Positions 644 through 64,000 of a stretch of DNA of 64,000 bases are shown here, in pieces. The stretch is from positions 1-64,000 of the IMG/VR virus record IMGVR_UViG_3300032003_000001. One strand, given 5' to 3'. The position numbers and the translations under genes were made by a program. This DNA comes from a virus. The notes below the pieces were generated by a model. It did not search any database, was not told the origin of the DNA, and was given only the letters and a program-made list of their open reading frames with translations. The first letter of the stretch is position 1. Each line of letters opens with the position of its first letter.

Positions 644-2211
644 ATAACACCGCCCGGCCGACGCTGATCGGCTACCGCAAGAACGGCGCCCCCATCTGGC
701 TTATCCAGGGTGGCGCCATCGACATCATGCCGGAGCTGCGCGGCGCATCGGCCGACAGCAACGACGACGCCCTCTACGAGGCGCTGCGGGGTAAAACCCC
801 CGACGACCTCACCCACTTTGTCGAGGTTCTGGACGCGCACCTGCGCACCATCCACCAGGACGAGCACACCGGCGAACTGCGGGACAAGACGCCCGCCGAG
901 CAGACCGCCTTCGACTTCGGCCTGCGGCTGCGCGATCTCGCGATCAAGAAGGTCGACGAGCACCGGGCGGTGCAGGAGGTCTTCAAGCGGCGCCCCAAGT
1001 CCGTCGAGGCGGCGATGCTGAACCTGGGCACCCGCGACAAGGCGGACCCGTACGGCGACATCCGCCGGATGACGGTCTCCGAGGCCCGGGACCGGGCGCT
1101 GCGCATCCTCGATGACCGCAACTCGGCCGCGCACCTGAGTGGCGAGGAGAAGGACACCGTCGAGCGGCAGGTCCGTGTCTCGACCGACATCGCCCGCCGG
1201 ATCCTGGTCACCGAGCACGAGGCGTACCGGGACGCGTGGTTGAAGATGGTCACCCGCCCCAACGGCGCGATGTACCTCAACGAGGACGAGCGTCGCGCGA
1301 TGATGGCGTTCGACGAGTACCGGACCATGTCGGAGGGAACGACCACAGCGGGAGGATTCGGAATCCCCGTTTTCATCGATCCCTCGATCATCCTCACCGC
1401 GCAGGGGTCCGGGAATCCGTTCCTCCAGATCGCCCGGCAGGTCGACGTCAACACCAACGCCTGGAAGGGCGTGTCCTCGGCCGGCGTGAACTGGTCCTTC
1501 GATACCGAAGGCGTCGAGGTCTCCGACGACTCCCCGACGCTGGCCCAGCCGACGGTCACCGTCTACATGGCCCGCGGTCTGATCCCCTACACCATCGAGG
1601 TGGGCCAGGACTACCCGAGTTTCGCCGCCGAGATGAGCACCCTCCTCGCCGAGGGCTACGACGAGCTGCTCGTCGACAAGTTCACCCGCGGAACCGGCAC
1701 CGGCGAACCGCAGGGCATCCTCACCGTGCTGTCGGCCACGGCCGGCGCCCGGGTCGCGGTCCAGACCTCCGGCGTGAACTTCGGCGCCAACGACCCGTAC
1801 GCCGTCTGGAAGGCGCTCGGCCAGCGGTTCCGCCGCAAGGCGGCCTGGATGATGTCCGTGGACGTCAACAACAAGATCCGCCAGATCGGCACGGCGAACG
1901 TGTTCCACGCGTTCACCGAGTCGCTGCCCGCCGAATGGGCGGACATGCTGTTCGGCAAGACGGTGTACGAGTCGCCGTACATGCCGGACACCACCACGTC
2001 GACCGCGGCGAACTCGGGGCTGGCGATCGTCGGGGACTTCCAGCAGTACGTCATTGCTCGAAGGGGCGGCATGAGCGTCGAGCTTGTGCCCCATTTGACC
2101 AGTACGACTACAAATCTGCCGAATGGCACCCGGGCGTGGTTCGCGTACAGCCGCATCGGTGGCGGGGCAGCGAGTACGAGCGCGTTTAAGTTGCTGGTCA
2201 ACACGGCGTAG
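640..2211 (+). CDS. major capsid protein, HK97 fold, with long N-terminal scaffold/delta-like region
   Basis: 523 aa. Charged helical N-terminal ~190 aa, then a GFGIPVFIDPS...WKGVSSAGVNWSFD...YTIEVGQDY core. Position directly after the protease. Confidence 0.85.
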   Translation: MNNTARPTLIGYRKNGAPIWLIQGGAIDIMPELRGASADSNDDALYEALRGKTPDDLTHFVEVLDAHLRTIHQDEHTGELRDKTPAEQTAFDFGLRLRDLAIKKVDEHRAVQEVFKRRPKSVEAAMLNLGTRDKADPYGDIRRMTVSEARDRALRILDDRNSAAHLSGEEKDTVERQVRVSTDIARRILVTEHEAYRDAWLKMVTRPNGAMYLNEDERRAMMAFDEYRTMSEGTTTAGGFGIPVFIDPSIILTAQGSGNPFLQIARQVDVNTNAWKGVSSAGVNWSFDTEGVEVSDDSPTLAQPTVTVYMARGLIPYTIEVGQDYPSFAAEMSTLLAEGYDELLVDKFTRGTGTGEPQGILTVLSATAGARVAVQTSGVNFGANDPYAVWKALGQRFRRKAAWMMSVDVNNKIRQIGTANVFHAFTESLPAEWADMLFGKTVYESPYMPDTTTSTAANSGLAIVGDFQQYVIARRGGMSVELVPHLTSTTTNLPNGTRAWFAYSRIGGGAASTSAFKLLVNTA

Positions 2212-2263
2212 CCAGCGGATGCCCATGACGACCTCATCCGCCCCGCACCTGAGGGAGACCTCC

Positions 2264-2476
2264 GTGGCAGAAGTAATCAAACCGAAGACCGGCACCGAGA
2301 AGGCGGCTGAACCCAAGGCGCCCGAGCCGAAGAAGGCCGTGCTCGGCAAGGCGGCCGAGTCGGGCGACCCGACCATCCAGCGGCTCCTCGCCGAGCAGGA
2401 GATCCACCGCTCCAACGGCGACGACGAGCAGGTCGACAAGATCCGCGAGCAGCTCGCGGGCCTCGGCTTCGAGTAG
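2264..2476 (+). CDS. small Lys/Glu/Ala-rich protein, function unknown
   Basis: Frame of track ORF 2123..2476. GTG 2264 is 6 nt after GAGGGAG. ATG 2219/2225 are alternative starts. Confidence 0.45.
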   Translation: MAEVIKPKTGTEKAAEPKAPEPKKAVLGKAAESGDPTIQRLLAEQEIHRSNGDDEQVDKIREQLAGLGFE

Positions 2477-2491
2477 CCCCCCACCACCAGC

Positions 2492-2531
2492 GCGGAAGCC
2501 CCGGACCACCCCCACGGTCCGGGGCTTCCGC
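2492..2531 (+). terminator. 16-bp perfect GC-rich hairpin after the capsid module
   Basis: GCGGAAGCCCCGGACC (2492-2507) pairs with GGTCCGGGGCTTCCGC (2516-2531), 8-nt loop. No U-tract, as in many actinobacterial terminators. Confidence 0.55.
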
Positions 2532-2555
2532 GTCCCCAAGGAAGGCCAACCATCC

Positions 2556-2804
2556 ATGAACATCGTGTACGCCAAGGACAGCCTGCGGGTGCAGATGGGC
2601 GACGGCACGACGCGGCGGTACCCGCCCGGGTCACACTGGCCCGCCGACGACCCGTTCGTCCTGGCCAACCCCGGCCAGTTCTCCACCGACCCGCGCTACC
2701 ACCTCGCCTTCAGCGACCCGCGCCCCGAGTACTTCGGCGACGTGGCCGACGAAACGGCCACCGCGAACCCCGGCGAGCGCCGCAACACCCGCCGCACCGC
2801 CTGA
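2556..2804 (+). CDS. hypothetical protein
   Basis: 82-aa track ORF with an ATG start after AAGGAAGG. High third-position GC. Confidence 0.55.
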   Translation: MNIVYAKDSLRVQMGDGTTRRYPPGSHWPADDPFVLANPGQFSTDPRYHLAFSDPRPEYFGDVADETATANPGERRNTRRTA

Positions 2805-2808
2805 ACTC

Positions 2809-2844
2809 CTCCGGCCGGCCGCTGGGATGGTCGGCCGGCCGGAG
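2809..2844 (+). terminator. 13-bp perfect hairpin whose loop contains ATG 2827
   Basis: CTCCGGCCGGCCG (2809-2821) pairs with CGGCCGGCCGGAG (2832-2844). Confidence 0.45.
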
Positions 2845-4356
2845 GTCCACCATCCCGACCTGAAGGACCCACCGTTGACCGACGAACCCGCCGACGTGAC
2901 ACCGGACCCGTCCGAAGCTGTCGCCGTCGCCTACGTCCACTCCGACACCGTCCACTATTCGTGGCACCACTGCATGACCCAGCTGCTCGCCTACGACGCG
3001 GCCACCGAAGGGCGAATCTGGACCGGCGGGTACGTCGCCATCCGAGGCGGCACCGACGGCCTCGCCGAGGCCCGCAACACCGCAGTGCGGGAGTTCCTCG
3101 CCGACTCCACCGCCGGCTGGTTGTGGTGGGTGGACACCGACATGGGCTTCGCCCCGGACACCGTGGACCGGCTGATCGAGGCCGCGGACCCCGCCGAACG
3201 GCCCGTCGTCGGCGCATTGGCCTTCGCCAACCGCGAGGTCGAGAACGACGGCATGGGTGGACGGCGCTCCGTCGTCGCCCCCGTCGTCCTGGACTGGAAG
3301 ACCATCGACGGGGAGTCCGGATTCGACACCCGCTGGGACTACCCGCGCGACACCCTGACCCGGGTCCACGGGGTCGGCTCCGCGTGCGTACTCATCCACC
3401 GGTCCGTGTTCGAGCGGGTCGCCGCCCAGTTTGGGCCCAACTGGTACAGCCGCGCCCGCAACCCCTCCACCGGCGCGCTGATCAGCGAAGACCTGTCCTT
3501 CTGCGTCCGGGTCAACGCTCTGGATATCCCGCTGTACGTGCACACCGGCATCGGGACCACCCACGCGAAACTCGCCTGGCTCGGCGAAGAGGACTACTGG
3601 CGCCAACGCGCCATCAACGCCGAGCCGAGCGTCCAGGGCGGGTTCACGCCCGAGCAGGCTGTTGCTGCCGTTAGTGCCCCCGAGCGGACCTGGACCGTAC
3701 CGCGGTACGCGATCATCCCCACCCACAACCGGCCGGCCCGTCTGCTCGCGCTCGTCGCGTCGCTTCGTGGCCAGTGCGACCACGTCCTGGTCCTCGACAA
3801 CGCATCCGACCCGCCCGCGGACGCCGCCAAACTCACCGGCACGTTCGGCGGGCACGACGTACAGGTCTGGCGCGACAAGGAACAGCCGCCACACCTGAGC
3901 CGGTACTGGAACGTGCTGTTCGACCGGGCCGCCGAGCACGCAGAGTCCGAGGGCATCACCGCCTGGGACGTCGCGGTGCTGAACGACGACGCGACGGTGC
4001 CGGCCGGGTGGTACGACGCCTGCTCGAACGGGCTGCGCGACCACGGGACGGCGATCATCGCGCACACCACCCCGACCCGGCCGGCGCTGCTGACCGAGTT
4101 GGGCAACGACCCCCGCAACCGCATGACCCCGCACGCCTTCGTGATCCGCGGCGAAATCGGCATGCGCGCGGACGAGGCCATGAGGTGGTGGTACTTCGAC
4201 TCCGACCTCGACCAGCGGGCCCGGCTCGCCGGCGGGGTGCTGTCCGTGCGCGGCCCGCAGGTCGCGAACTCGCTGGCCAACACCACCACCAGGGGGGCGC
4301 TGGCCGAGCAGGCCGAGAAGGACCGCGCCGCCTTCGAAGCGAAGTGGTCGGCATGA
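2827..4356 (+). CDS. two-domain GT-A (family 2-like) glycosyltransferase
   Basis: 509 aa. WWVDTDMGF and IIPTHNRP...LNDDATV motifs (two DXD-type sites). TTG 2875 after GAAGGA is an alternative start. Confidence 0.7.
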   Translation: MVGRPEVHHPDLKDPPLTDEPADVTPDPSEAVAVAYVHSDTVHYSWHHCMTQLLAYDAATEGRIWTGGYVAIRGGTDGLAEARNTAVREFLADSTAGWLWWVDTDMGFAPDTVDRLIEAADPAERPVVGALAFANREVENDGMGGRRSVVAPVVLDWKTIDGESGFDTRWDYPRDTLTRVHGVGSACVLIHRSVFERVAAQFGPNWYSRARNPSTGALISEDLSFCVRVNALDIPLYVHTGIGTTHAKLAWLGEEDYWRQRAINAEPSVQGGFTPEQAVAAVSAPERTWTVPRYAIIPTHNRPARLLALVASLRGQCDHVLVLDNASDPPADAAKLTGTFGGHDVQVWRDKEQPPHLSRYWNVLFDRAAEHAESEGITAWDVAVLNDDATVPAGWYDACSNGLRDHGTAIIAHTTPTRPALLTELGNDPRNRMTPHAFVIRGEIGMRADEAMRWWYFDSDLDQRARLAGGVLSVRGPQVANSLANTTTRGALAEQAEKDRAAFEAKWSA

Positions 4357-4970
4357 TCGGATACGGGACCTGTGTCGGCTCCTGGGACAAGCTGCGACGC
4401 AACGTCGCGCCCCGCACTGCCGGCCGGCCGCTGTTCGCCCTGTCCGGGCAGACGCAGCTGACGGTGGCCTACAACACCGTCCTCGACGCCTACCGGGGCA
4501 GGGACCTCGACGCGGTGATCCTGCTGCACGACGACCTGGACATGGTCGACCCGCACGCGGAGGAGAAGTTCCTCAAGGCGCTCGCCGAGCCCGACATGGC
4601 GCTGGTCGGGGTGTGCGGCGGCAAGGGCGACGAGACGCTGGCCTGGTGGACGTCGGAGACCGTTGGTCACCAGATGACCGACTCCGGGATGCTCGACTTC
4701 GGCGAGCGCACCGGGGATGTGGCCTTCATCGAAGGCTCGATCATGGTCTTCAGCCCTTGGGCTGTGGAGAACCTGCGCTTCGACGAGCGGTACCCGGGAT
4801 TCCTCGGCTACGACGACGTCTGCCTCACCGCACGGGCCGCCGGCAAACGGGTCACCGTTGCCGACGTCGACACCCACCACCACTCCACGGTGGGCTTCAA
4901 GTCGCCGGCCATCGCCGCGGCGTGGGATGTCGCGGAGGAGATCTTCCAGGAGAAGTGGTGGGGCCGGTGA
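4353..4970 (+). CDS. glycosyltransferase-like protein
   Basis: 205 aa. ATGA overlap with the upstream stop. ILLHDDLDMV and FIEGSIMVFSPWAV resemble GT2-like family proteins. Confidence 0.55.
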   Translation: MIGYGTCVGSWDKLRRNVAPRTAGRPLFALSGQTQLTVAYNTVLDAYRGRDLDAVILLHDDLDMVDPHAEEKFLKALAEPDMALVGVCGGKGDETLAWWTSETVGHQMTDSGMLDFGERTGDVAFIEGSIMVFSPWAVENLRFDERYPGFLGYDDVCLTARAAGKRVTVADVDTHHHSTVGFKSPAIAAAWDVAEEIFQEKWWGR

Positions 4971-6154
4971 AGCGCACCTCCTGCTCCGCCTGCGGCCACC
5001 AGGATCTCGACGAGTTCCTCGATCTCGGCCTCAGCCCGATCGCCGACGCGTACACCACCACACCGGACGAGCCGGTCGACCGGTTCCCGCTCCAGGTTGC
5101 GGTGTGCGCGAAATGCCGGCTTGTGCAGCTGCTGGAAGTCGTCGACCACGACGTGCTCTTCGGCACCGGGTACTCGTTCTACAGCTCCGCGAGTGCGCCG
5201 CTGAGCGCCTACCACGCCTCGTACGCCCGTGACGTGCTGCGCCGCTACCCGGACCTCGCCCGCCGCGGTGTGGTCGAGGTGGGCTGCAACGACGGGGACC
5301 TGCTGCGCCACTTCGCCGTCTACCCGGCGCTCGGCGTGGACCCCGCCGCCGGCCCGGCCGCCGCGGCCGCCGACCGGGGGCTGGACGTGCTGGTGCGCCC
5401 GTTCGGGCTCGCCGCCGCGTGTGACATTCGTGACCGCCGCGGCCGGGCCGGGATCGTCGTCGCCAACCACGTCCTCGCACACGTCGCCGACGTCGCCGAT
5501 GTCCTCGCCGGCATCCGCGCCCTGCTCGCGCCGGATGGCGTGGCGATGGTCGAGGTCCAGTACCTGCCCGACCTGTTGGTCAACAACGCGTTCGACCTCG
5601 TGTACCACGAGCACCGCAACTTCTTCAGCCTCTCGTCACTGGAGCAGGCGGCGCAGCGGCACGGCCTGTTCGTCGCCGACGCGCAACTCACCGACCGGCA
5701 GGGCGGCTCCCTGCGGGTCACCCTGACCACCAACCCCATTCCCTCGGCACGGGTCGACGCGATCCGGGCGTCGGAACGCTGGCTGCAATCCTGGGGCGCC
5801 TACGAGGGGATGCAGGGACGGGTCGAGCGGATCCGCACCCGCCTCGTCGACCTCATCGCCGCCGAACGGGCGGCGGACCGTATCGTCGCCGGCTGCGGCG
5901 CACCCGCGAAGGCGACGACCCTGCTCAACTTCTGCGGCCTGACCCGCAACGAATTGCGGCTGGTCACCGACACCACCCCGGCCAAGCGGGGCCGCCACAT
6001 ACCCGGCACCGGCATACCGATCCTCGCCCCGGTTGAGGTGACCGGCGGGGTCGACACCTACGTGTGCCTGGCCTGGAACTACACCCGCACGATGATCCGC
6101 AACAACCCCCGGCCCCGGTGGATCGTCCCCATCCCCGCCCCCATGCTGTTGTGA
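4967..6154 (+). CDS. SAM-dependent sugar C-methyltransferase-like protein
   Basis: GTGA overlap. N-terminal CSACG...CAKCRLVQL zinc module, VVEVGCNDGDLL SAM motif and C-terminal C-methyltransferase-like region (TylCIII/NovU type, from memory). Confidence 0.7.
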   Translation: MKRTSCSACGHQDLDEFLDLGLSPIADAYTTTPDEPVDRFPLQVAVCAKCRLVQLLEVVDHDVLFGTGYSFYSSASAPLSAYHASYARDVLRRYPDLARRGVVEVGCNDGDLLRHFAVYPALGVDPAAGPAAAAADRGLDVLVRPFGLAAACDIRDRRGRAGIVVANHVLAHVADVADVLAGIRALLAPDGVAMVEVQYLPDLLVNNAFDLVYHEHRNFFSLSSLEQAAQRHGLFVADAQLTDRQGGSLRVTLTTNPIPSARVDAIRASERWLQSWGAYEGMQGRVERIRTRLVDLIAAERAADRIVAGCGAPAKATTLLNFCGLTRNELRLVTDTTPAKRGRHIPGTGIPILAPVEVTGGVDTYVCLAWNYTRTMIRNNPRPRWIVPIPAPMLL

Positions 6155-7032
6155 CGGCGCTGATCCTGGGAGTCAGCGGCCAGGACGGCTACTACCTGGC
6201 CACGCAGCTGCTCGAAGCCGGCATTGAGGTGCACGGGGTGGTCCGCCGCCGCACATCATGGCCGCTCGGCGTCCGGCTCCACGCCGCGGATCTCCTCGAC
6301 CAGGACTCGCTGCGGCAGGCCCTGCGCCGGTCCCGACCCGACGTGGTCTACAACCTCGCCGCGGTCACCGCGCCCGGCGGGGCGTGGGGAGCCCCGCCGC
6401 CCCCGCTGCTGGCCGAGGTGACCGGGCTCGGCGTGGTCCGGCTGATGGACGCCATGCTGAGGGTCTGCCCGGACGCCCGGCTCGTGCACGCCTCCTCCAG
6501 CGCGGTCTACGACCCGCACCGCTACGGCCTGTACGGCATCAGCAAGCGGTTCGCCCACGATGCGGTGGTCGGTTACCGGAATCGGCTGCGCTGCTCCAAC
6601 GCGGTGCTGTACTCGCACACCTCGCCCCGCCAGGACGGCAGGTTCCTCGCCCCGACGATCTGCGCCACCCTGGCCCGCATCCGTACCGGCTCCCAGGAGC
6701 GACTGCGGCTCACCGACGTCCTTGGCCGCCGCGACTGGGGCTACGCACCCGATTTCACCCGGGCGCTGACGCTGATCGGCACGGCGGACCGGCCCGGAGA
6801 CTGCGCGGTCGCCACCGGGCACCGCCACACGGTGCGGGACTTCGTGGACATCGCCCTCGATGCGGCCGGGCTGGACTGGTCCGTCGTCGACATCGACCAG
6901 GGCCCGGTCGCCCCCGCCGAGCACCCCGCCGACCTCATCGCGGTACGGGCGCTGGGCTGGAGACCCGAGATGGGCTTTGCGGCAATGGTCCGGCTCATGG
7001 TGGAGGCTGCGTGGACATCACCGTCGCCATAG
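6151..7032 (+). CDS. NAD-dependent NDP-sugar dehydratase/epimerase
   Basis: GTGA overlap. ILGVSGQDGYYLATQLLEAGIEVHGVVRR Rossmann motif and YGISKRF (YxxxK). Confidence 0.8.
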   Translation: MTALILGVSGQDGYYLATQLLEAGIEVHGVVRRRTSWPLGVRLHAADLLDQDSLRQALRRSRPDVVYNLAAVTAPGGAWGAPPPPLLAEVTGLGVVRLMDAMLRVCPDARLVHASSSAVYDPHRYGLYGISKRFAHDAVVGYRNRLRCSNAVLYSHTSPRQDGRFLAPTICATLARIRTGSQERLRLTDVLGRRDWGYAPDFTRALTLIGTADRPGDCAVATGHRHTVRDFVDIALDAAGLDWSVVDIDQGPVAPAEHPADLIAVRALGWRPEMGFAAMVRLMVEAAWTSPSP

Positions 7033-11822: not shown

Positions 11823-12239
11823 TTGGCCACCATCAGCCAGATCCGCGACGCCATCGGCACCCGCCTGCTGACCCTCGACCAGATGCGGGTCCAGGACGAG
11901 TTCGGCGAGGACCCGCCCGTGTCGGCCAATGCCTGCGTTGCGGTGGTCCAGTACGCCGGAGCGACGTACGACTCCGTCTTCGGCGGTCAGGGGGACGCTC
12001 TGCTCTTCGGGGTCATCGTCCTGGTCAGCCGGGGGTCCGACCGCATCGCGATCGACACGCTCGACGCCCTCAGTGACCCCAGCCCCGGCTCGACCACCTC
12101 GGTCCGCAACGCGGTCAACGGCAGCCTCGGCGGGGTGGTGGCAGCGGCCACGGTCGCCACGGGCAGCGACTACAAGGACTACCCGATCGGCGAGCAGAGC
12201 TACGTCGGGGTCGAGTTCGTCGTGCAGGTGATGACCTGA
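11823..12239 (+). CDS. head-tail joining / tail-terminator-like protein
   Basis: 138 aa with a TTG start. The call rests on size and position between the connector and tail tube genes. Confidence 0.45.
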   Translation: MATISQIRDAIGTRLLTLDQMRVQDEFGEDPPVSANACVAVVQYAGATYDSVFGGQGDALLFGVIVLVSRGSDRIAIDTLDALSDPSPGSTTSVRNAVNGSLGGVVAAATVATGSDYKDYPIGEQSYVGVEFVVQVMT

Positions 12240-13264
12240 TGCGCTGGCTCGCCGCCGAACCTGGCCCGCAGTTTTCCGTGTTGGACGTGCACACCGGCTA
12301 CGTGGAGGCGCTGCGCGCGGCCGGCGAAACGGTGGTCACCTACCCGCTCGGCGCCGCCCTCACCTTCTACGACTCCGTGCTCCTGCAGTCCGGCAGCCAC
12401 ACCTTCCACAAGGCGCTGAGCGGACAGCAGGCCACCGAACTGGCCGCCGACCGGCTCGCCGGCGCGCTGTACAAGGTCCGGCCCGACGTGCTGCTACTCA
12501 CCAGCGGGTTCTTCATCGACACGGACCTGCTCGACGTCGCCCGCCGCGACGGCGTCCGCGTCGTGGCGATCCTGACCGAGCAGCCGTACGAGCACGCCCG
12601 CGAACTGGACCTGGCCCGCCACTGCGACCTGGTCCTGCTGACCGACCCGGTCAACATCGGAGACTTCCGGGGCGTCACCCGCGCCGCCCACGCCCCGCAC
12701 TGCTACCGGCCCGACGTGCACCACCCCGGCCCCGCCGACCCAGCCCTGGCCTGCGACCTCGCGTTCGTCGGCACCGGCTACGCCTCCCGGATCCGGTTCT
12801 TCGAGGCGATGGATCTGACCGGGCTGGACGTGCTCCTCGCCGGCAACTGGCAGCAGCTCGACGAGGACTCGCCGCTGCGCCGGTACGTGGCCACCGGCCC
12901 CGACGACTGCCTCGACAACACCCGGGCCGCCGACGTGTACCGCTCCTGCTCCGTCGGGATCAACCTGTACCGCCGCGAAGCCGAGTCACCCGACCGGATG
13001 CAGGGCTGGGCGGTCGGACCCCGCGAGGTCGAAATGGCCGCCATCGGCTGCTTCTACCTGCGCGACCCCCGCCCCGAGGGCGACCAGCTGCTCCCGATGC
13101 TGCCCACCTTCCACAGCCCGGAGCAGGCCGCCGACCAGATCCGCTGGTGGCTCCACCACCCCGACCAGCGCGCCGCGGCCGCGCTCAAAGCACGCGACGC
13201 CGTTCAGGACAGAACCTTCGACCGCGCCGCCGAGCGGCTGCTGCGGCTGCTGGATGAGGAGTAG
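12239..13264 (+). CDS. CgeB-like (GT1-fold) glycosyltransferase
   Basis: 341 aa. LAFVGTGYASRIRFFEAM...LLAGNWQ...GINLYR...REVEMAAIGCFYL resembles the CgeB/DUF3880 family. Confidence 0.6.
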   Translation: MRWLAAEPGPQFSVLDVHTGYVEALRAAGETVVTYPLGAALTFYDSVLLQSGSHTFHKALSGQQATELAADRLAGALYKVRPDVLLLTSGFFIDTDLLDVARRDGVRVVAILTEQPYEHARELDLARHCDLVLLTDPVNIGDFRGVTRAAHAPHCYRPDVHHPGPADPALACDLAFVGTGYASRIRFFEAMDLTGLDVLLAGNWQQLDEDSPLRRYVATGPDDCLDNTRAADVYRSCSVGINLYRREAESPDRMQGWAVGPREVEMAAIGCFYLRDPRPEGDQLLPMLPTFHSPEQAADQIRWWLHHPDQRAAAALKARDAVQDRTFDRAAERLLRLLDEE

Positions 13265-19240: not shown

Positions 19241-20761
19241 GTGGCGCTGGCGGTGGACTACGCATCCGGCCCCATCGCCCCGACAGCACTGCTCGCGGCC
19301 GGTGTCACCGACGTGTGCCGCTACCTGGCCCCGCTCGGGCGGGGCGACTGGAAACGGATCAAGGTGGGGGAGTACCGGGATCTGCTGGCCGCCGGGCTGC
19401 GGGTGACCCTGGTCTGGGAGTCGTACGCCACGGACTGGCTCGGCGGCGGCGCAGCGGGTCGGGAACACGGCGTTGAGGCGGGACGGCAGGCCACGGATCT
19501 GGGCTACCCGGCCGGTGCCACCGTCTTCGGCTCCTGTGACTTCGACCTTGCCGCTACGGAATGGCCGGCCTGCCGGGACTACGTGGCCGCGTTCGCCGCC
19601 GCCCTACATGCTGGCGGGTACCGGCCCGGTGTGTACGGGCCGTGGGATGCGCTGCAACGCTGCGCCGACGCCGGCCTGGTCGCCGTGTTCTGGCAGGCCG
19701 GCATGTCCCGGGCCTGGTCGCAGGGCCGCAACGCCCGCGACCACCCGCGCGCCCACCTGATCCAGCGCGCCCCGGCCCGGATCGGCGGCACGCCGGTGGA
19801 CCGGTCCGACATCGTCGTCCCCGCCTGGGGGCAGGCATCAACCTCGGGGGCAGTCATGACCTACGCGCCAGCCGACCTGCTCGCAGTGCGCCAGTACGTG
19901 ATGGGTCACACCGGCCTGGACGCAAGCAGCGTAGGCATCGCCGGTGACCCCGCCCACGCGAGCAGCGGGGGCTACCACGAAGGCAACGACGATCTCGCAA
20001 ACGCCGGCCGGTTGGACTCGGACTACTCGAAACGCGAGTCCCCCCGCGACCGGCCGGGCAGCAACGCGGCGAGCGCCGAGGACATCGGCGACTTCAACCG
20101 CGACGGCAAGACGCTGCGGCAGCTGAGCCTGTTCGTCGTCGCGAAATGCCAAGCCGGGGACCCGCGCTGCAACGACATCCGGGAGATCATCTACACCCCG
20201 GACGGGTCGGCGGTGCGCCGCTTCGACCGGCTCGGCATCCGCTCGACCGGCGACAGCTCACACCTCTACCACACCCATCTCTCGTTCTTCCGGGACAGCG
20301 AGGGCCGCCGCGCGGGCGACGGCAACTTCCTCGGCCTGCTCCGGGAATTCTTCGAAGGAGTCACCATGGGCAGCGAATGGCATGTTGGGGAGCCGAACGG
20401 TGCGGCCCTGACCCAGGGCGCCCCCGGGTACGCCGGGCAGCAACGCGACACCGCGCTCGCGTTCACGTGGCAGCAGGCCACCACCGCCGCAGCCATGGCG
20501 GCGGCGAACGGCGCCAAACTCGACCAGCTGCTCACCGCGGCCACCGCGGAGACCGCCCGGGACGCGGCACTCAAAACCGTGGTCGACGCCCTCGCCGCAG
20601 CCATCACCGCCGGAGGTGGGAGCGTGGACGTGGCCGCCATCCTCGCCGGCGTGGCCGACGCCGTCCACGACGCGGTCGAGCCCCTGGAAACCGAGATCGC
20701 CGACCTGCGGCACCGCCTCGCCGCCGCCGAACGCGCCGCCGCCGACTCCCTCGACTCCTGA
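19241..20761 (+). CDS. endolysin (DUF1906/Rv2525c-like glycoside-hydrolase domain plus a second His/Asp-rich domain)
   Basis: 506 aa. The N-terminal VDYASGPI...RYL...LVWESY...CDFD pattern, then SGGYHEGNDD...SSHLYHTHLSFFRD, then a helical C-terminus. Confidence 0.75.
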   Translation: MALAVDYASGPIAPTALLAAGVTDVCRYLAPLGRGDWKRIKVGEYRDLLAAGLRVTLVWESYATDWLGGGAAGREHGVEAGRQATDLGYPAGATVFGSCDFDLAATEWPACRDYVAAFAAALHAGGYRPGVYGPWDALQRCADAGLVAVFWQAGMSRAWSQGRNARDHPRAHLIQRAPARIGGTPVDRSDIVVPAWGQASTSGAVMTYAPADLLAVRQYVMGHTGLDASSVGIAGDPAHASSGGYHEGNDDLANAGRLDSDYSKRESPRDRPGSNAASAEDIGDFNRDGKTLRQLSLFVVAKCQAGDPRCNDIREIIYTPDGSAVRRFDRLGIRSTGDSSHLYHTHLSFFRDSEGRRAGDGNFLGLLREFFEGVTMGSEWHVGEPNGAALTQGAPGYAGQQRDTALAFTWQQATTAAAMAAANGAKLDQLLTAATAETARDAALKTVVDALAAAITAGGGSVDVAAILAGVADAVHDAVEPLETEIADLRHRLAAAERAAADSLDS

Positions 20762-34373: not shown

Positions 34374-34499
34374 TCATGATGAGTTGGGCGTGAGTTTGGA
34401 TCATGAGAGTCCGTGGTAATCCCTAAGAACCCCCGAGACGGTTCGGGCAGGCCAACGCCATGATCAGCGGGGCCGCGGCAGGTCGGGGAGACGCCTGAA

Positions 34500-34549
34500 C
34501 TTCCTTGACACGGAAGAGGTCACTGGTTCAAACCCAGTATCGCCCACCA
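34500..34549 (+). other. 3' portion of tRNA-Val(GAC), from anticodon stem to CCA, not a complete gene
   Basis: CTTCC-TTGACAC-GGAAG, AGGTC, ACTGG-TTCAAAC-CCAGT, ATCGCCC-A-CCA. No matching acceptor 5' strand or D arm upstream. Confidence 0.75.
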
Positions 34550-34632: not shown

Positions 34633-35853
34633 TCACCCTGACTTGCGCCGCTGCCGGGCGTTGCGCGCCCGGTCGAACCGGCTGTCGTTCGAGTGGGTGT
34701 AGCGCATCGCCGAACGCACGTCGGCATGCCCCATCAGCGCCATGCGGTCGTGCAGCTCCAACCTGTCGGCCGGGTCCTCCGGCACGTCGTTGGCCAACGT
34801 GGTCCCGTAGGTGTGCCGGGTGTCGTGCGGCGTCGGCAACGGCTCGTCGATCAGCGGCGTCCACAACGGCTGGCCGTCCGCACCCCTGGCCGGCCTGCCC
34901 CGCTCGTCGAGCACCGGCACCCGCAGGGCACGGTTCCACACCCGCCGCAACCACGTCGGGTAGCGCATCGGCCCGCCCTCGCTCGCCGTGAACACCAGCC
35001 CGTCAGGGGCAGTCGCTAGCATGACAGGGCGCAGCCGGCCGAGCAGCTCCGGACTCACCGACGCGTTACGGAACCCGGCGGCCTGGCGGGTCCGGGCACC
35101 CTTCGGGTAGTCCCGGACGGTCCCGTCGCGTTCCATGACCGGGCCCAACCGGATCAGGCTGGCCCGCAAGTCCACCGCCGGGCGGGAGACCCCGGCGATC
35201 TCCTCCCACCGCGCACCCGTCTCGAACAGGGTCTCGACGAACAACCGCGCGTCGCGGCGGCCGGGAAACAGTGTGTCGAGCCGGACGAGGATCGCCTCCT
35301 CCTCGTCGGGGTCGATGATGCGTGCCTCGTGCGCCGGCGGCATCGGCGCCTTCACCCGCCGGGCCGGGTTCGAACGGATCATCCCGGCGTCGACCGCCAG
35401 TTCCATGGCCGCCTTCATCACGTTCAGGGCGGCGATGATGACCCAGCCCCCGCGCCGGCAGCCTTCACACTTCTTGGACCGGCAGTCGTCGGCGTGGGCG
35501 GTCTCCAGGTCGATGACCCATTTCTGCACGTCCGGCTTCAGGATCCGGCCGACCGGGGTGTCGCCCCAGCGGGGCCGGACGTGGCACCGGAAGATCGAGG
35601 CGTCCCGGGCGCGGGCCGCCTTCGAGATCCGGCGCGTCCCGCAGTACTTGTCCCACACCTCGCCGACCGGGGTCTTCGACAGCCGCGGGTCGATCAGTTC
35701 GCCGCGGCGGATGTCCGCCTCCATGTCCACGGCCCACTCGGTCACGACCATCTTGAGCTTGTGGGTCTCGGTGCGGCGGCTGCCCGGGTCCCCGGGGGTC
35801 AGGTAGACGGTTGCGGCCCACAGGCCGGACGGCAGTTGCCGGACCCACGCCAT
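34633..35853 (-). CDS. int: tyrosine integrase
   Basis: 406 aa. C-terminal HDTRHTYGT...LMGHADVRSAMRYTH catalytic pattern. Adjacent to the tRNA-derived att core. Confidence 0.9.
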   Translation of the reverse strand: MAWVRQLPSGLWAATVYLTPGDPGSRRTETHKLKMVVTEWAVDMEADIRRGELIDPRLSKTPVGEVWDKYCGTRRISKAARARDASIFRCHVRPRWGDTPVGRILKPDVQKWVIDLETAHADDCRSKKCEGCRRGGWVIIAALNVMKAAMELAVDAGMIRSNPARRVKAPMPPAHEARIIDPDEEEAILVRLDTLFPGRRDARLFVETLFETGARWEEIAGVSRPAVDLRASLIRLGPVMERDGTVRDYPKGARTRQAAGFRNASVSPELLGRLRPVMLATAPDGLVFTASEGGPMRYPTWLRRVWNRALRVPVLDERGRPARGADGQPLWTPLIDEPLPTPHDTRHTYGTTLANDVPEDPADRLELHDRMALMGHADVRSAMRYTHSNDSRFDRARNARQRRKSG

Positions 35854-39552: not shown

Positions 39553-40071
39553 ATGGGCGAGGACTTCAGCATCCGGCGGGAGATCCGCGACATCATCGAC
39601 ACCACCGACCTGACCAGTCCGCACGACATCGCGGCGAAGGTCGCGGAGAACGTGCCGGCGAAGCTGCTGCGTGTCGCGTTGACGCAGTCGCTTTCGGAGC
39701 TGGTCCGGGTCGAGCTGGGCATCCTCCGTGCCCGGATGTACAACCAGCCCGCCGAGGTGGCCGACCAGGGGCCGAGGTCGAGCCGGTCGGCGAAGGTGAT
39801 CGCGATCCGGCAGGCGTCCGCCGGCTGGCGTGAGGCGCTGCGGGAGCGGGTCCACGTCGGTAACGGCAACTGGCTCCTGCTGTCGGAGTGCTCCGCGGAG
39901 CACCTGCGGTTCGCGGCCGAGGAGCGCAGGATCATCGCCGCCCGCACGCTGGCCTCCGCCGACCGGTACGAGCAGCTCGGCGCGGCGTGCGAGAAGTACA
40001 AGGTCGGCTGCGTTGCCGACCTGCCCGAGGCCGCCCTCGCAGCGCTGCTCGGTGCTGAGGACGCGGCATGA
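39553..40071 (+). CDS. hypothetical protein
   Basis: 172-aa track ORF. Confidence 0.5.
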   Translation: MGEDFSIRREIRDIIDTTDLTSPHDIAAKVAENVPAKLLRVALTQSLSELVRVELGILRARMYNQPAEVADQGPRSSRSAKVIAIRQASAGWREALRERVHVGNGNWLLLSECSAEHLRFAAEERRIIAARTLASADRYEQLGAACEKYKVGCVADLPEAALAALLGAEDAA

Positions 40072-41459
40072 CCATCACAGACTCCCGCCCGACCGGAAGC
40101 GACGCGACACCCAACACCCTCCCGTCGGGCGGGGAACGACTTGCTGGCGGCCAGGTGATTCCCGATACCCAGATTCCGCGCGCCGCCGGCACCGAACTCA
40201 CGACCGGCGACACCCAGCCTCGCCTCGCGGTCGGTGCAAGCTCCCGCTCAGCCAAAGTTGACGCGGCGCCCATCCTTCGTGCGCTGAGCGGGGAACAACC
40301 TGTTGATCGCCAACGTAACGGCGGAGCCCCAAGTACGACCGCGATCAGCAATCAACCAGCCGGCGGCCGTATCAGTCGCGATATCCAAGCGGACCCCGCC
40401 GCCGGCTCAAGCTCCCGCTCGGCCCGGAGGGTTGCGACGCCCATTGATCCCCCGCCGGGCGGGGAACAACCCACCGACTGCCATGTCCACGGCGCCGCCC
40501 ATGTCCACGACGCGGTCGGTGTCGAGGCTGGGCGGGATCCAGCAGCCACAGGCGTTCCGGAGCCCAATGCCGTAACGCTGCTGGACCCCGCCCTCGCCCT
40601 CGCCGCCGATGTCCTGGACGACATCGAACGGGTCCGGATCGCCAACGCCAACCGGCTGTTGATCCTGACCCGCTCAGTGGAGGACTCCGACGGAGAGGTG
40701 CGCGGGTTCGGGTTGGACGAGTCCCACCCGGACGTCGCCCGCCTGGCGGCGATGGTGGAACTGCTGGCCAAGGCGGAGCACGACGCGGAGCTGAACCTGG
40801 GGCGGATGATGCGCCGGCACCCGCTGCACACCTGGATCAAGGCTCAGCGGGGGATCGGCGACAAGCAGGGCGCCCGGCTGCTCGCCGCCATCGGCGACCC
40901 GTACATCAACAGCTCGACCGGTATGCCCCGCACCGTTTCGGCGCTCTGGGCGTACTGCGGGCTCCACGTTCTCCCGGCCGGCCAAGCCGCTTGCGACACC
41001 CATATTGTGACTGCCGGCCGGAGCCAGCTTCCCGTCGACCGAGAAGGTTGCGACACCCGGAACTCCTACGTCGGCGGGGTGGGGGGTGACCCCGGCCAAC
41101 CCCCCGATGACACCCACCGACCGGTCGCCGGGGTCGCCCCCAAACGAGCCCGCGGACAGCGGGCGAACTGGTCCACAAGGGCCAAGACCAAAGCCTATTT
41201 GGTCGCAACTAGCTGCATGAAGCAGCTTGTCGCGCCCTGCGCCCGCGACGGGGACGGCCCCGCCGCTCATGTCGATGCCTGCTCCTGCTCCGCGTACCGG
41301 GTGGTCTACGACGCGCGCCGCGCTCACACGAAGGTCACCCACCCGGACTGGTCGGACGGCCACAGCCACAACGACGCGCTACGGATCGCGGCGAAGGCGG
41401 TCCTGCGGGACCTGTGGCGGGCCGCCCGCGAGTTCCACAACGGCCCGGACGAGGGCTGA
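40068..41459 (+). CDS. orphan IS110-family transposase C-terminal (Transposase_20-like) domain protein with repeat-rich N-terminus and insertion
   Basis: 463 aa. IKAQRGIGDKQGARLLAAIGDP...LWAYCGLHV...PKRARGQRANWSTRAKTKAYL. No DEDD N-terminal domain is recognisable. Confidence 0.55.
   Translation: MTITDSRPTGSDATPNTLPSGGERLAGGQVIPDTQIPRAAGTELTTGDTQPRLAVGASSRSAKVDAAPILRALSGEQPVDRQRNGGAPSTTAISNQPAGGRISRDIQADPAAGSSSRSARRVATPIDPPPGGEQPTDCHVHGAAHVHDAVGVEAGRDPAATGVPEPNAVTLLDPALALAADVLDDIERVRIANANRLLILTRSVEDSDGEVRGFGLDESHPDVARLAAMVELLAKAEHDAELNLGRMMRRHPLHTWIKAQRGIGDKQGARLLAAIGDPYINSSTGMPRTVSALWAYCGLHVLPAGQAACDTHIVTAGRSQLPVDREGCDTRNSYVGGVGGDPGQPPDDTHRPVAGVAPKRARGQRANWSTRAKTKAYLVATSCMKQLVAPCARDGDGPAAHVDACSCSAYRVVYDARRAHTKVTHPDWSDGHSHNDALRIAAKAVLRDLWRAAREFHNGPDEG
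40104..41116 (+). repeat. dispersed GCGAC(A/G)CCC(A/G) repeats and about 70-nt imperfect direct repeats inside the CDS
   Basis: 10-mers at 40104, 40207, 40434, 40993 and 41050 (plus ATGACACCCA at 41107). GGCGGGGAAC(A/G)AC at 40128, 40287 (as AGCGGGGAACAAC) and 40458. CAAGCTCCCGCTC at 40237 and 40408. Confidence 0.75.
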
Positions 41460-56365: not shown

Positions 56366-56541
56366 GCGCCCGGGCGAAGACCTGGGTCCTGATCGCCGCC
56401 GCGGTCGTCGTGCTGGTGCTGTGCTGCGGCCTCGCCGCCTGCCTACCGGCCAGCCCCGGCTACCACGTGGTCCACAGCGACACGTCGAAGTCGAAGAAGA
56501 GCAAACCGAAGACCGTCAAGGTCAAATCACGGAAGAGGTAG
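56362..56541 (+). CDS. 59-aa membrane/lipoprotein-like protein with Lys-rich tail
   Basis: GTGA overlap. WVLIAAAVVVLVLCCGLAAC, then SKSKKSKPKTVKVKSRKR. Confidence 0.45.
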   Translation: MSARAKTWVLIAAAVVVLVLCCGLAACLPASPGYHVVHSDTSKSKKSKPKTVKVKSRKR

Positions 56542-56546
56542 GGCGA

Positions 56547-57146
56547 ATGGGACTGGACTTCACGAAAGAGGCCAACGGCGACGAGGTCGCACCGCTCGGC
56601 TCGGTCGGGGTGCTGGAGGTCGAACTGGAATGGGAGCAGCCGCAGACCGGCGGCGGGTTCATGGGCAAGCTGAAGGGCCTGCGCGACGCGACCGACGTGG
56701 ACGTGGCCGGGATCCTGTTCGAGGGTGACGAGCCGGTGGACTACGTCGACCCCAAGCAGCACCCGAGCGCGTTGGGTGGGGCGGTCGTACACCACGGCGA
56801 CGTCAAGCGCGGTGCCGGCGAGGGCGGCGGGGAACGGATCACCATGCGGCTCGCCGACATCCGGGAGACCGACTCCGACATCACCGCGATCGCGCTCACC
56901 GCGTCGTGCCCGAGGGGTGACTTCTCTAAGGTGGCCGGCGCGGTCTGCCGGATCTTCGACGCCTCCAACGGGACCCGCCAGCACCTGGGCAACGTCCGCT
57001 TCGCCGTCACCGGCGGGCACACCGGTGCGCTGCTGGGCGTGGTCCGCAAGACCCCGGACGGGTGGCTGTTCGCGAAGACCAAGGCGTACGGCGCGGCGGG
57101 GAACTGGCGGCAACTCGCGGGCCTGGCCCGCGGCCGAGTCGCGTAG
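56547..57146 (+). CDS. TerD-domain stress-response-like protein
   Basis: 199 aa from ATG 56547. VLEVELEWE...VDVAGILFEG...ITMRLADI...ITAIALTASC...VCRIFDAS pattern. Confidence 0.65.
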   Translation: MGLDFTKEANGDEVAPLGSVGVLEVELEWEQPQTGGGFMGKLKGLRDATDVDVAGILFEGDEPVDYVDPKQHPSALGGAVVHHGDVKRGAGEGGGERITMRLADIRETDSDITAIALTASCPRGDFSKVAGAVCRIFDASNGTRQHLGNVRFAVTGGHTGALLGVVRKTPDGWLFAKTKAYGAAGNWRQLAGLARGRVA

Positions 57147-62652: not shown

Positions 62653-63440
62653 AGTTCGGTTTACCTTCGGATCCTGGCGGTGTACCGTCCCGTTCCGTGG
62701 CTCCATCCCTGACGAAACTCCACCAGATCAACGCGCTCGTGACCGGCGCCAAGCCGCGCGCCCAGCGCACCCTGACCGACGCCCACCAGATCCTCCAGAA
62801 GGCTCCGGTGCTGTCGGGCATTTCCCGCACGTATCTGCCCCGCGACGACGAGGGTGAGCGGCTGCCCCCGGAGTCGACCCGTGTTCAGGTGGTGGCCGCG
62901 AAGACGATCGCCGACATGGCGTCCGAGTTGGGCCGGCTCTTCGACCTGCAGTTGACCCAGGACTTCGGCAACACCCAGGCGCGCGCGGACGTGGTCGTCG
63001 ACGGGCAGACCGTCCTGTCGGACGTGCCGGTGACGTACCTGCTGTGGCTGGACAAGCACCTGACCGACCTGCGGACGTTCGTGGACAAGCTCCCGACCCT
63101 GGACCCGTCCGAGACGTGGACATGGGACGAGGCGCGCGCCTGCTGGGCGTCGGCTCCGGTCGAGACGGTCCGCAGCAAGAAGGTGCCGCGCAACCACGTG
63201 CTCGCCGAGGCCACCGAGAAGCACCCCGCCCAGGTGCAGGTCTTCAACGAGGACGTCCCGGTCGGCAATTGGACCACCGTCAAGCTGTCCGGCGCCCTCC
63301 CGCCGGCGCAGATCCGCGAGTACCGCAACCGAGTCGCCAAGCTCCAGGATGCGGTGAAGGTTGCCCGGGAACAGGCGAACAGCGTGGAGGTCGCGGACCG
63401 CCCGGCCGGCGCGGCGATACTCGGCTACCTGTTCGGGTAG
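62649..63440 (+). CDS. conserved-looking hypothetical protein
   Basis: 263 aa from TTG 62649 (TTGA overlap), in the frame of track ORF 62571..63440. Confidence 0.5.
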   Translation: MKFGLPSDPGGVPSRSVAPSLTKLHQINALVTGAKPRAQRTLTDAHQILQKAPVLSGISRTYLPRDDEGERLPPESTRVQVVAAKTIADMASELGRLFDLQLTQDFGNTQARADVVVDGQTVLSDVPVTYLLWLDKHLTDLRTFVDKLPTLDPSETWTWDEARACWASAPVETVRSKKVPRNHVLAEATEKHPAQVQVFNEDVPVGNWTTVKLSGALPPAQIREYRNRVAKLQDAVKVAREQANSVEVADRPAGAAILGYLFG

Positions 63441-63450
63441 CCCCAAGACT

Positions 63451-63470
63451 CCCCTCCTGGAGCGGAGGGG
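63451..63470 (+). terminator. 7-bp hairpin after the last early gene
   Basis: CCCCTCC (63451-57) pairs with GGAGGGG (63464-70). Confidence 0.35.
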
Positions 63471-63514
63471 CGCGCGCAAGCGCAGAGGCTGAGGCTCACA
63501 TCTCAGGCTGATCG

Positions 63515-63596
63515 AGGATGGCACCAAGTGCAGGTTCGACTCCTGCCCCGGGCTCCACTTGCCCGGGTGGCGCAATCGGCAGACGCATGTCCACCT
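63515..63596 (+). ncRNA. circularly permuted tRNA-like module A
   Basis: T arm at 63530-46 (loop TTCGACT), CCCGGGC-T-CCA at 63547-57, linker CTT, GCCCGGG at 63561-67, TG, then a D-arm-like GCGC AATCGGCA. Closing helix 63515-24 / 63589-96. Confidence 0.45.
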
Positions 63597-63664
63597 ACAT
63601 AACCGCTGAGGCTCTCGCTCCAGGCTCAGCACCCCGCCGATCACCAGATCGAATGGTCACGACA

Positions 63665-63747
63665 ACCGTTAGCGAGATTGCCGGTTCAAATCCGGCCGGC
63701 CGCTCCAATCATGCGGCCGTGGCTCAATGGCAGAGCGCGCAAACCGT
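63665..63747 (+). ncRNA. circularly permuted tRNA-like module B
   Basis: T arm at 63680-96 (loop TTCAAAT), CGGCCGC-T-CCA at 63697-707, linker ATCAT, GCGGCCG at 63713-19, TG, D arm GCTC-AATGGCA-GAGC. Closing helix 63665-74 / 63738-47 (8/10 bp). Confidence 0.5.
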
Positions 63748-63820
63748 CAGTCTGATGCGTGGCCTTAAACGCCGCTGGTGTGCGAATGGGCGGTTCACGC
63801 CTCGAAAACGTGTGATCACA

Positions 63821-63853
63821 GGGACCCCGGAGATGGGCATGCTCCGGGGTCCC
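63821..63853 (+). terminator. 12-bp perfect hairpin closing the RNA cluster
   Basis: GGGACCCCGGAG (63821-32) pairs with CTCCGGGGTCCC (63842-53). Confidence 0.5.
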
Positions 63854-63891
63854 GCCATATTCCGCTGGTTAGGGGACCCCGGGAAGTGACC

Positions 63892-64000
63892 ATGATCGAG
63901 CTACGGCTGTACTGGAAGAGCCCGGACGGTGAGGTTGACCTCGGCTCCGGCTTCCACGAGATGCTCCCGCCTGTCGGCTCACTGCTGGCCTTCGTCACCG
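63892..64000 (+). CDS. hypothetical protein (3' end outside window)
   Basis: ATG 63892 is 5 nt after GGGAAG. MIELRLYWKSPDGEVDLGSGFHEM... stays open to the window edge. Confidence 0.4.
   Translation, partial: MIELRLYWKSPDGEVDLGSGFHEMLPPVGSLLAFVT

Follow-up and report, generated by a model that had tools for sequence, protein, structure and literature searches.

The stretch analysed here is a 64,000-nucleotide (nt) segment of viral DNA (IMG/VR record IMGVR_UViG_3300032003_000001, positions 1 to 64,000; hereafter the window), and the element of interest lies near its right end. There, a gene of the DUF7873 family is followed, on the same strand, by two RNAs bearing transfer RNA (tRNA)-like heads whose parts stand in permuted order. 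The window is 70% G+C and resembles the genome of a temperate actinophage, with a capsid gene and genes for a lysin, an integrase, a C5 methylase and a DUF5131 protein. The complete genome is a circle of 71,212 base pairs (bp): the window plus a further 7,212 nt closes with zero mismatches. That remainder holds four small open reading frames (ORFs) and the genes for the large terminase, the portal, a 465-amino-acid (aa) protein and a protease. The coordinates of the DUF7873 gene, the RNAs and their parts are collected in Table 1.

The start of the DUF7873 gene is taken at the ATG. A GTG at 62571 would give a 289-aa protein, a form that found no match in an exact-protein look-up; the 247-aa form was matched, the identical protein (P0001, 100%) being encoded on two contigs, one from ENA (71,353 bp) and one from Logan (63,036 bp). 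The region that follows is non-coding, as a preliminary description made from the sequence alone had held. A mechanical ORF at 63518–63889 has a third-position G+C content of 0.60, versus 0.8–0.95 in the real genes of the window, and no gene is called in the RNA interval on two public contigs of identical sequence. Nor does the interval hold ordinary tRNAs. ARAGORN, including its mode for permuted transfer-messenger RNA (tmRNA), finds nothing there, its sole call in the window being a tRNA-Val at 34470–34549; the Rfam tRNA (RF00005) and tmRNA (RF00023) models do not match there, and at gathering thresholds Rfam matches nothing in the whole window. The earlier failure to fold a canonical cloverleaf is thus borne out. 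A blastn search of GenBank phages with the 700-nt region returned no match.

Table 1. Features of the DUF7873–RNA cassette, in window coordinates
Feature	Coordinates	Strand	Basis or remark
DUF7873 gene	62697–63440	+	Pfam PF25283, E 5e-102; 247 aa from the ATG called in other assemblies
Two small hairpins between DUF7873 stop and RNA 1	63451–63483	+	sequence, single-sequence fold
RNA 1 (module A), whole molecule	63488–63630	+	helices mapped on alignment A2; closing stem and tRNA-like head
RNA 1 outer closing helix	63488–63497 with 63621–63630	+	alignment A2
RNA 1 second short closing helix	63508–63511 with 63607–63610	+	alignment A2
RNA 1 T arm GCAGG-UUCGACU-CCUGC	63530–63546	+	paired 100% in 36 sequences, compensatory changes
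RNA 1 acceptor stem CCCGGGC/GCCCGGG	63547–63553 with 63561–63567	+	7/7 pairs
RNA 1 D arm GCGC-AAUCGGCA-GACGC, conserved GG	63570–63586	+	
RNA 2 (module B), whole molecule	63634–63793	+	helices mapped on alignment A2
RNA 2 closing helix P1	63634–63638 with 63789–63793	+	
RNA 2 closing helix P2	63642–63647 with 63775–63780	+	
RNA 2 closing helix P3	63655–63661 with 63758–63764	+	
RNA 2 conserved unpaired loops separating closing helices	AUCGAA 63648–63653; UUAAACG 63765–63771	+	
RNA 2 T arm GCCGG-UUCAAAU-CCGGC	63680–63696	+	100% paired in 36 sequences
RNA 2 acceptor stem CGGCCGC/GCGGCCG	63697–63703 with 63713–63719	+	7/7 pairs
RNA 2 D arm GCUC-AAUGGCA-GAGC	63722–63736	+	
Predicted RNase P sites	63560/63561 (RNA 1); 63712/63713 (RNA 2)	+	by analogy with Mycobacterium smegmatis YrlA
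G+C-rich 12-bp hairpin GGGACCCCGGAG/CUCCGGGGUCCC	63821–63853	+	sequence, fold; U tract absent

The preliminary description had recognised the two heads as 80-nt modules, A and B. Reading of positions 63300–64000 confirms where it placed every element of both, and the permuted order and the missing anticodon loop are real. In RNA 1, the acceptor loop consists of U63554, the CCA at 63555–63557 and the linker CUU (63558–63560), and UG follows position 63567. RNA 2 has U63704, the CCA at 63705–63707 and the linker AUCAU, with UG after 63719. Beside each head lies an anticodon-stem-like inner helix, formed in RNA 1 by 63515–63524 and 63589–63596 (8 bp with two bulges) and in RNA 2 by 63665–63674 and 63738–63747 (8 of 10 pairs); hand counts agree with the earlier figures. 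The size of 80 nt does not stand, since these helices run into long conserved closing stems that extend each RNA to about 145–160 nt.

The closing stem of RNA 1 carries conserved internal loops, and a conserved 3′ motif, CUCUCGCUCCAG, sits between its outer helix and the second short helix. In relatives, the consensus flanks of RNA 1 are like AAGCUGARNCUGA on the 5′ side and like CUCAGAUUCUCGCUCCAGNCUCAGCAU on the 3′ side, and the two flanks pair into a closing stem that holds a conserved internal loop. Comparison of relatives indicates that RNA 1 and RNA 2 are different RNAs, each with its own conserved D arm and flanks. RNA 1 of Streptomyces flaveus JCM 3035 (5770–5875 of locus L169) has a plain hairpin, GCGCGGUCCC-GGAUCA-GGGACCGCG, in place of its head. 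The stem motifs are kept in this RNA while the head has become a hairpin; thus, it is the stem that is the conserved part. The second module alone is seen in several further Streptomyces loci.

Two such modules in one interval are many more than chance would give. When searched with a strict pattern (5-bp T stem, TTCRANN loop, 7 nt, a 3–39-nt loop and a perfect 7-bp complement), 3.1 Mb of control sequence gave a background of 0.0096 per 700 nt, versus the two found here. A covariance model of the tRNA-like head (R1) matches the window only at 63522–63592 (71.0 bits) and 63672–63744 (67.9 bits). A loose IUPAC pattern run over viral contigs was swamped by tandem-tRNA junctions, and matches were therefore filtered by acceptor complementarity; a tighter pattern gave 15 matches, of which one was a true relative; and an exact search of the viral contigs for module B found nothing. 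A relaxed regular expression had a 14-fold higher background and added no modules, the covariance model being better.

The pairing is supported by comparative data. Pairs were counted on sequence-based alignments, and the counts were compared with those obtained when the partners were slid and with shuffles. For RNA 2, 92.3% of cells in 39 pairs are paired, versus 37–46% when slid, and covariation is 0.60 versus 0.10–0.15. The corresponding figures for the 29 pairs of RNA 1 are 92.0% versus 34–45% and 0.38 versus 0.06–0.11. For neither RNA did any of 500 shuffles reach the observed values. The acceptor stems are 100% paired in 36 sequences in both cases; the stem of RNA 1 displays double changes at four pairs in 12–15 sequences, and that of RNA 2 covaries at every pair. 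An example of the latter is locus L139, where two compensatory base-pair swaps convert GCGGCCG/CGGCCGC into GCCGCGG/CCGCGGC, UCCA being kept and the linker altered. The anticodon-stem-like helix has no clean register in a fixed-register test because the lengths of the variable region and the D loop differ. Scored instead as the best helix against permuted partners, it has mean lengths of 5.3 and 5.1 uninterrupted bp in the two RNAs, versus 3.6 and 3.2, and none of 200 permutations matches the observed mean. Covariation of the closing helices, on which the preliminary description had staked its proposal, is thus present in the pair counts and the permutation tests alike.

The second line of evidence is linkage. 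Eighty genomic and 80 viral loci were fetched by the DUF7873 protein alone, the genomic ones from Streptomyces, Micromonospora, Nonomuraea, Nocardia, Actinomadura, Kitasatospora, Ktedonobacteria and Herpetosiphon, which left 158 usable, independent loci. In 144 of the 158, the strict pattern finds at least one permuted module on the DUF7873 strand no more than 700 nt past the gene, and in 95 it finds two. Several of the pattern-empty loci were rescued by R1. The median offsets of the modules are +105 and +243 nt; in the window, the T arms begin 90 and 240 nt past the DUF7873 stop codon. The window RNAs fit this tandem class in spacing, in their D arms and in the motifs CUCUCGCUCCAG (RNA 1) and AUCGAA/UUAAACG (RNA 2). 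The linkage spans Actinomycetota, Chloroflexota and phages.

The association survives changes of both neighbourhood and protein sequence. A DUF7873 homologue of 89% identity, whose genetic surroundings differ (L139/L140), likewise has both modules after it. Matches found independently by pattern in two viral contigs, L129 and L056, lie just downstream of homologues of 54% and 33% identity, and the linkage is kept at 28–35% identity in L001, L056, Vibrio phage K479 and Klebsiella phage FBKp24. Among GenBank phages, it is found with homologues of 28–47% identity in Gordonia phage Guey18, Vibrio phage K479 and Klebsiella jumbo phage FBKp24, the modules of the latter two being preceded by homologues of 28–30% identity. 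On bacterial chromosomes, DUF7873 is followed by a gene-free gap of about 480 nt, and the flanking genes are unrelated between genera. The cassette is self-contained and moves between chromosomes and phages. In the phages GodonK (L243), Guey18 and Vibrio K479 and in loci L122 and L227, it lies inside or beside tRNA and tmRNA arrays, a position that fits shared processing or a role in tRNA biology. The protein family is large, with more than 3,000 clusters at 90% identity (E ≤ 1e-10) and matches in at least 595 stretches of species-representative genomes, 275 viral contigs and 75 GenBank phages.

Three of these loci merit separate mention. A Ktedonobacterales metagenome-assembled genome (L156, 6207–7006) has four rather than two head-model matches downstream of DUF7873. 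In Guey18 (L304, MW601220), small hypothetical genes 127 and 128 are annotated on the RNA region after the DUF7873 gene 126 (3232–3701); both are probably mis-called ORFs, as the head-model matches at 3499–3572 and 3649–3750 overlap gene 128. In Klebsiella phage vB_KpM_FBKp24 (L306, NC_061421), an annotated tRNA-Sup-TTA (3518–3597) and a permuted module at 3513–3656 have the T arm and the 3′ acceptor strand in common. The downstream 5′ acceptor strand pairs at 7/7 positions, versus 5/7 for the strand of the annotated tRNA. The annotated suppressor tRNA may not be genuine; alternatively, this RNA may adopt both folds.

What kind of RNA is this? YrlA, a bacterial Y RNA, has a permuted tRNA-like domain, and the ends of the RNA lie on the anticodon side (Chen et al. 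2014, PMC4201824). The window RNAs share with YrlA (RF02553) the order closing stem, variable region, T arm, closed acceptor stem, D arm and closing stem. YrlA is the only Rfam family that matches both modules, and it does so end to end, with 34.9 bits (E 8e-6) for one and 20.8 bits for the other. These matches, together with the published design, uphold the YrlA-like architecture that the preliminary description had assigned to the modules. For calibration, mycobacteriophage Bxz1 (AY129337) is instructive: its gp220 is annotated as Ro-like, a YrlA lies 190 nt upstream of this Ro, and that YrlA scores 32.5 bits with Rfam and 33.2 bits with the head model. The Bxz1 YrlA contains GCUUAAACGCCGGUGG and the motif UUAAACGCCGNUGG, and shares the motif GCUUAAACGCCGNUGG with RNA 2; UUAAAYG is found in 69% of RNA 2 copies versus 1.3% of background. 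At another Ro locus (L310, 41% identical), a head-model match lies 68 nt after Ro. Based on the Rfam matches, the Bxz1 calibration, the shared motif and the L310 match, the heads of the window RNAs and of YrlA belong to one type, and RNA 2 and actinobacterial YrlA may be homologues.

Some details of the Bxz1 locus (L307) are recorded here. The 484-nt gap upstream of gp220 (19761–20245) has its YrlA head at 19980–20056, and a second region at about 20110–20200 carries GGCCGAAGG, which matches the Rsr-contact motif GNCGAAN0-1G. Both Bxz1 scores fall far below the Rfam YrlA gathering threshold, which indicates that the threshold misses actinophage YrlAs.

The likeness to YrlA bears directly on processing. 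In M. smegmatis, YrlA and YrlB are arranged in tandem and are made from one precursor; this YrlA is the only one with a 7-bp acceptor stem, and RNase P RNA cuts it at the position of a tRNA 5′ end, both in vitro and in vivo (PMC4201824). The resulting 5′ fragment bears CCA, of which the C is encoded and the CA is added (PMC4201824). The window modules have 7-bp Watson–Crick acceptor stems with a G1–C72 pair, U at position −1 and an encoded N73-CCA. Among relatives, 201 of 242 modules have G–C as the 1:72 pair. C follows the discriminator in 49/61 RNA 1 and 71/71 RNA 2 genomic copies, and in 37/46 and 62/64 viral copies, respectively. A full NCCA is encoded in 17–42% of modules, depending on the class, versus a chance expectation of about 2%; for module 2, the figures are 42% of viral versus 17% of chromosomal copies. 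RNA 1 has A as its discriminator, RNA 2 either U or G. Given the sequence features of the window RNAs, it is plausible that they are cut ahead of G63561 and G63713 and carry CCA 3′ ends at positions 63557 and 63707. The proposal of RNase P cleavage and CCA-ended products in the preliminary description thereby gains a precedent and matching sequence features; cleavage of the window RNAs themselves is predicted by analogy.

The search for a protein partner gave a different result from that foreseen. An Rsr/Ro-like protein encoded outside the window had been suggested, but a TROVE domain is found in no ORF of at least 400 aa in the complete 71.2-kb genome, and therefore the expected Ro partner is not there. 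TROVE genes are likewise absent within 10 kb on either side of three bacterial cassette loci. In a tblastn search with Bxz1 Ro (308 loci, 3.0 Mb), Ro was detected in one (L276) of the 160 DUF7873 loci fetched with alignment A1, and the Ro-encoding phages lack DUF7873; the reverse, Ro-based search covered four loci only, so that association from the side of Ro is barely sampled. GNCGAAN0-1G is not enriched in relatives (13% versus 9% background). The preliminary description had thus seen the RNAs correctly and missed their conserved partner, which is the gene immediately upstream, DUF7873.

The one locus with both genes is a viral contig (L276, the same as L311; IMGVR_UViG_3300037466_001967). 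Its Ro60 gene lies at 1463–3151, with DUF7873 and two modules at 5001–6096 on the same strand. The Ro60 protein (vWA_Ro60, E 1.8e-12; weak TROVE match) is encoded 1.85 kb upstream of DUF7873, and the two systems were seen physically linked nowhere else.

The DUF7873 protein was modelled with AlphaFold2 from a 40-sequence alignment spanning both clades, with a mean predicted local distance difference test score of 91.8 and a predicted template modelling score of 0.77. Foldseek comparison of the model with the PDB and BFVD gave nothing at E ≤ 1e-3, the best template modelling (TM) scores among top-ranked matches being about 0.1–0.2. Profile searches of PDB sequences, NCBIfam and PHROGs were uninformative, and none of the PADLOC defence models matches. 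A likeness to Cas7 (E about 8e-3, TM about 0.1) was rejected as noise. In the alignment, D83, N92, H176, Q179, D186, K221, R224 and N228 are invariant polar residues; their conservation could mark a binding or catalytic site.

We consider the locus to be a conserved cassette made up of the DUF7873 protein and two YrlA-type tRNA-mimic RNAs, a reading to which we give a probability of roughly 0.65. That the modules sit just after DUF7873 in hundreds of bacteria and phages suggests an undescribed protein–RNA partnership, and DUF7873 is the likely partner of the RNAs. A working model is as follows. The cassette would be transcribed from or with DUF7873, ending at the 63821–63853 hairpin. RNase P would cut 5′ of G63561 and G63713, and the other fragment would be trimmed to, or already end in, N73-CCA (63557 and 63707). 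The products would be tRNA mimics that end in CCA and contain a nick, their pieces joined through the acceptor and closing helices. The conserved loops of the closing stems, not the head, may bind the DUF7873 protein, leaving the tRNA-like head, with its T arm, D arm and elbow-forming GG/TΨC residues, to engage host factors that recognise tRNA. The design recalls Ro60–Y RNA ribonucleoproteins in that a conserved stem would serve as the protein-binding module and the head would be the variable effector, as in RNA 1 of S. flaveus; it differs in its candidate protein, as the confident model of the 245-aa DUF7873 protein has no structural match to Ro60 or anything else in the PDB.

A wider proposal, on which we would put even money, is that DUF7873 and the two RNAs constitute an unrecognised, ancient, Ro-independent Y-RNA-like ribonucleoprotein that acts on or competes with the tRNA-handling machinery, i.e., RNase P, the CCA-adding enzyme, modification enzymes and tRNA-targeting toxins. 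Such a particle would be old enough to be shared by Actinomycetota, Chloroflexota and phages of Gordonia, Arthrobacter, Rhizobium, Vibrio and Klebsiella. There is a fair chance that it represents a new ribonucleoprotein class. The RNA design itself is already known from YrlA and the M. smegmatis precedent; what is new is that the RNAs are systematically linked to DUF7873, that they are independent of Ro and that the family is so broad. A search of the literature on permuted tRNAs and on Y RNAs in phages, of Rfam and of annotation found no description of the cassette, and no mention of DUF7873 was found in the papers searched.

Several observations weigh against the cassette as interpreted here. 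Both modules score below the Rfam YrlA gathering score (34.9 and 20.8 versus 69 bits), a comparison with little power in this clade, since the Bxz1 YrlA, itself linked to Ro, reaches only 32.5 bits; the likeness to YrlA could also reflect independent derivation from tRNA. The want of a TROVE domain in the genome, noted above, belongs here as well, as does the absence of GNCGAAN0-1G from 63441–63860. As regards the protein, DUF7873 is near-neutral (isoelectric point 5.9–8.7), and structure and profile searches found no recognisable RNA-binding fold in it. Finally, the covariance model finds no modules downstream of DUF7873 in three Herpetosiphon loci (L219, L203 and L205; 5730–5880), and in L219 just a hairpin separates DUF7873 from the next gene. 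It follows that DUF7873 can exist without adjacent RNAs.

Among other explanations, the closest to the cassette reading is that these are classical Y RNAs of the YrlA and YrlB type, bound in trans by the Rsr of the host, with DUF7873 a mere frequent neighbour. The architecture is the same, the tandem pair recalls M. smegmatis, UUAAACG is common to RNA 2 and the Bxz1 YrlA, and contig L276 does place Ro60 upstream of DUF7873 on the same strand. The distribution of Ro argues the other way: it is missing from the complete phage genome and from the surroundings of the three bacterial loci, it accompanies one in 160 DUF7873 loci, Ro-encoding phages do without DUF7873, and the Rsr-contact motif is not enriched. 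The window RNAs also differ from YrlA in having no Ro60/TROVE gene within 4 kb or elsewhere in the genome, in lacking GNCGAAN0-1G, in their DUF7873 linkage, in encoding the full CCA, in their closing-stem motifs and in scoring below the gathering threshold. We therefore regard host-Rsr binding as unlikely. It is quite improbable that the modules are cis-acting elements in the 3′ untranslated region of the DUF7873 mRNA, acting as RNase P punctuation or exonuclease blocks that set its stability. Their downstream position on the same strand at a fixed distance would suit such elements, as would the result of a consensus scan that detected no promoter-like site between gene and RNAs in this 70% G+C DNA. 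Moreover, tRNA-like 3′ processing signals occur elsewhere, an example being the mascRNA of MALAT1. Two different, elaborate RNAs of 145–160 nt with sequence-conserved internal loops nevertheless exceed the needs of a processing signal, and cleavage alone leaves the conserved D arm and elbow residues unexplained.

A further suggestion is that the phage copy is an anti-defence decoy or a toxin–antitoxin-like pair, in which CCA-ended mimics would soak up enzymes that attack the acceptor or elbow and DUF7873 would be helper or effector. The placement of phage cassettes in or next to tRNA and tmRNA arrays and the commoner NCCA of viral module 2 copies agree with it. With no anticodon loop, however, the RNAs could not decoy anticodon nucleases; PADLOC defence models do not match DUF7873, and the cassette is common in ordinary chromosomal contexts. 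As a separate explanation it is very unlikely, although it could be a special case of the cassette reading. Lastly, the modules might derive from tandem tRNA genes through decay or recombination, or be a two-piece tmRNA or a remnant of a phage attachment site (attP). Permuted two-piece tmRNA genes of alpha-proteobacteria and cyanobacteria place the CCA-bearing 3′ acceptor strand ahead of the 5′ strand and give a two-piece RNA with a tRNA-like domain; in the permuted tRNA genes known from algae such as Cyanidioschyzon merolae, the 3′ half comes before the 5′ half, a short linker joins the acceptor ends, and a circular intermediate matures into a decoding tRNA with an anticodon loop. The window modules share the order of the acceptor strands with the former, and the order of halves and the short acceptor linker with the latter. 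They differ from tmRNA in having no tag reading frame, pseudoknots, G3:U70 alanine identity or SmpB-like partner, and from algal tRNAs in their long conserved stem, open at the anticodon side, and in being carried by bacteria and phages. Tandem-tRNA junctions do resemble the pattern and give weak model matches in tRNA arrays; however, true junctions pair at 0–5 of 7 acceptor positions, whereas the acceptor strands in the window are mutually complementary. The modules are also conserved with covariation across hundreds of loci, the ARAGORN and Rfam searches were negative, G3:U70 is rare in relatives (1/107 RNA 1 and 8/135 RNA 2 copies), and the integrase is 28 kb away. The identities of canonical tRNA, tmRNA, algal-type permuted tRNA and attP were rejected on this evidence, and the probability of such an origin is negligible.

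Bacterial Y RNAs have so far been defined by the neighbouring Ro60 and sought only beside Ro60 genes; here, the same tRNA-mimic design is tied to a different protein of unknown fold, which provides the first functional lead for DUF7873. The cassette also explains why, in the genomes examined, an unannotated gap of about 450–480 nt separates DUF7873 from the next gene, and it exposes small ORFs that phage annotations have mis-called. The Gordonia phages of SEA-PHAGES and Streptomyces offer a tractable system for asking what purpose tRNA mimicry by Y-like RNAs serves, a question that dates from 2014.

Other features of the region and the window are less central. Of the two small hairpins that precede RNA 1, the first is CCCCUCC/GGAGGGG (63451–63470) and the second, which is kept in relatives, is GCGC-GCAA-GCGC (63472–63483). 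The hairpin at 63821–63853 probably ends the transcription unit; it is kept in L139 despite different downstream genes, and a consensus terminator scan did not call it in this 70% G+C DNA. The tRNA-Val(GAC) called at 34470–34549 (+ strand) is 80 nt long, with the anticodon at position 38, and adjoins the integrase gene (34633–35853, − strand). The Rfam tRNA model stays below its gathering score throughout the window, and so also here; this may be an unusual tRNA, or else a tRNA fragment associated with an attP beside the integrase. A transposase-like gene (40068–41459, + strand; phrog_4285, E 1e-72) lies within the phage early region, and a TerD-domain protein is encoded at 56421–57146 (+ strand). 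Among the virion genes (2827–7032 and 12239–13264, + strand) are two glycosyltransferases, a C-methyltransferase with a zinc-binding domain and an epimerase like GDP-mannose 4,6-dehydratase, which resemble a sugar-modification set, possibly for virion glycosylation.

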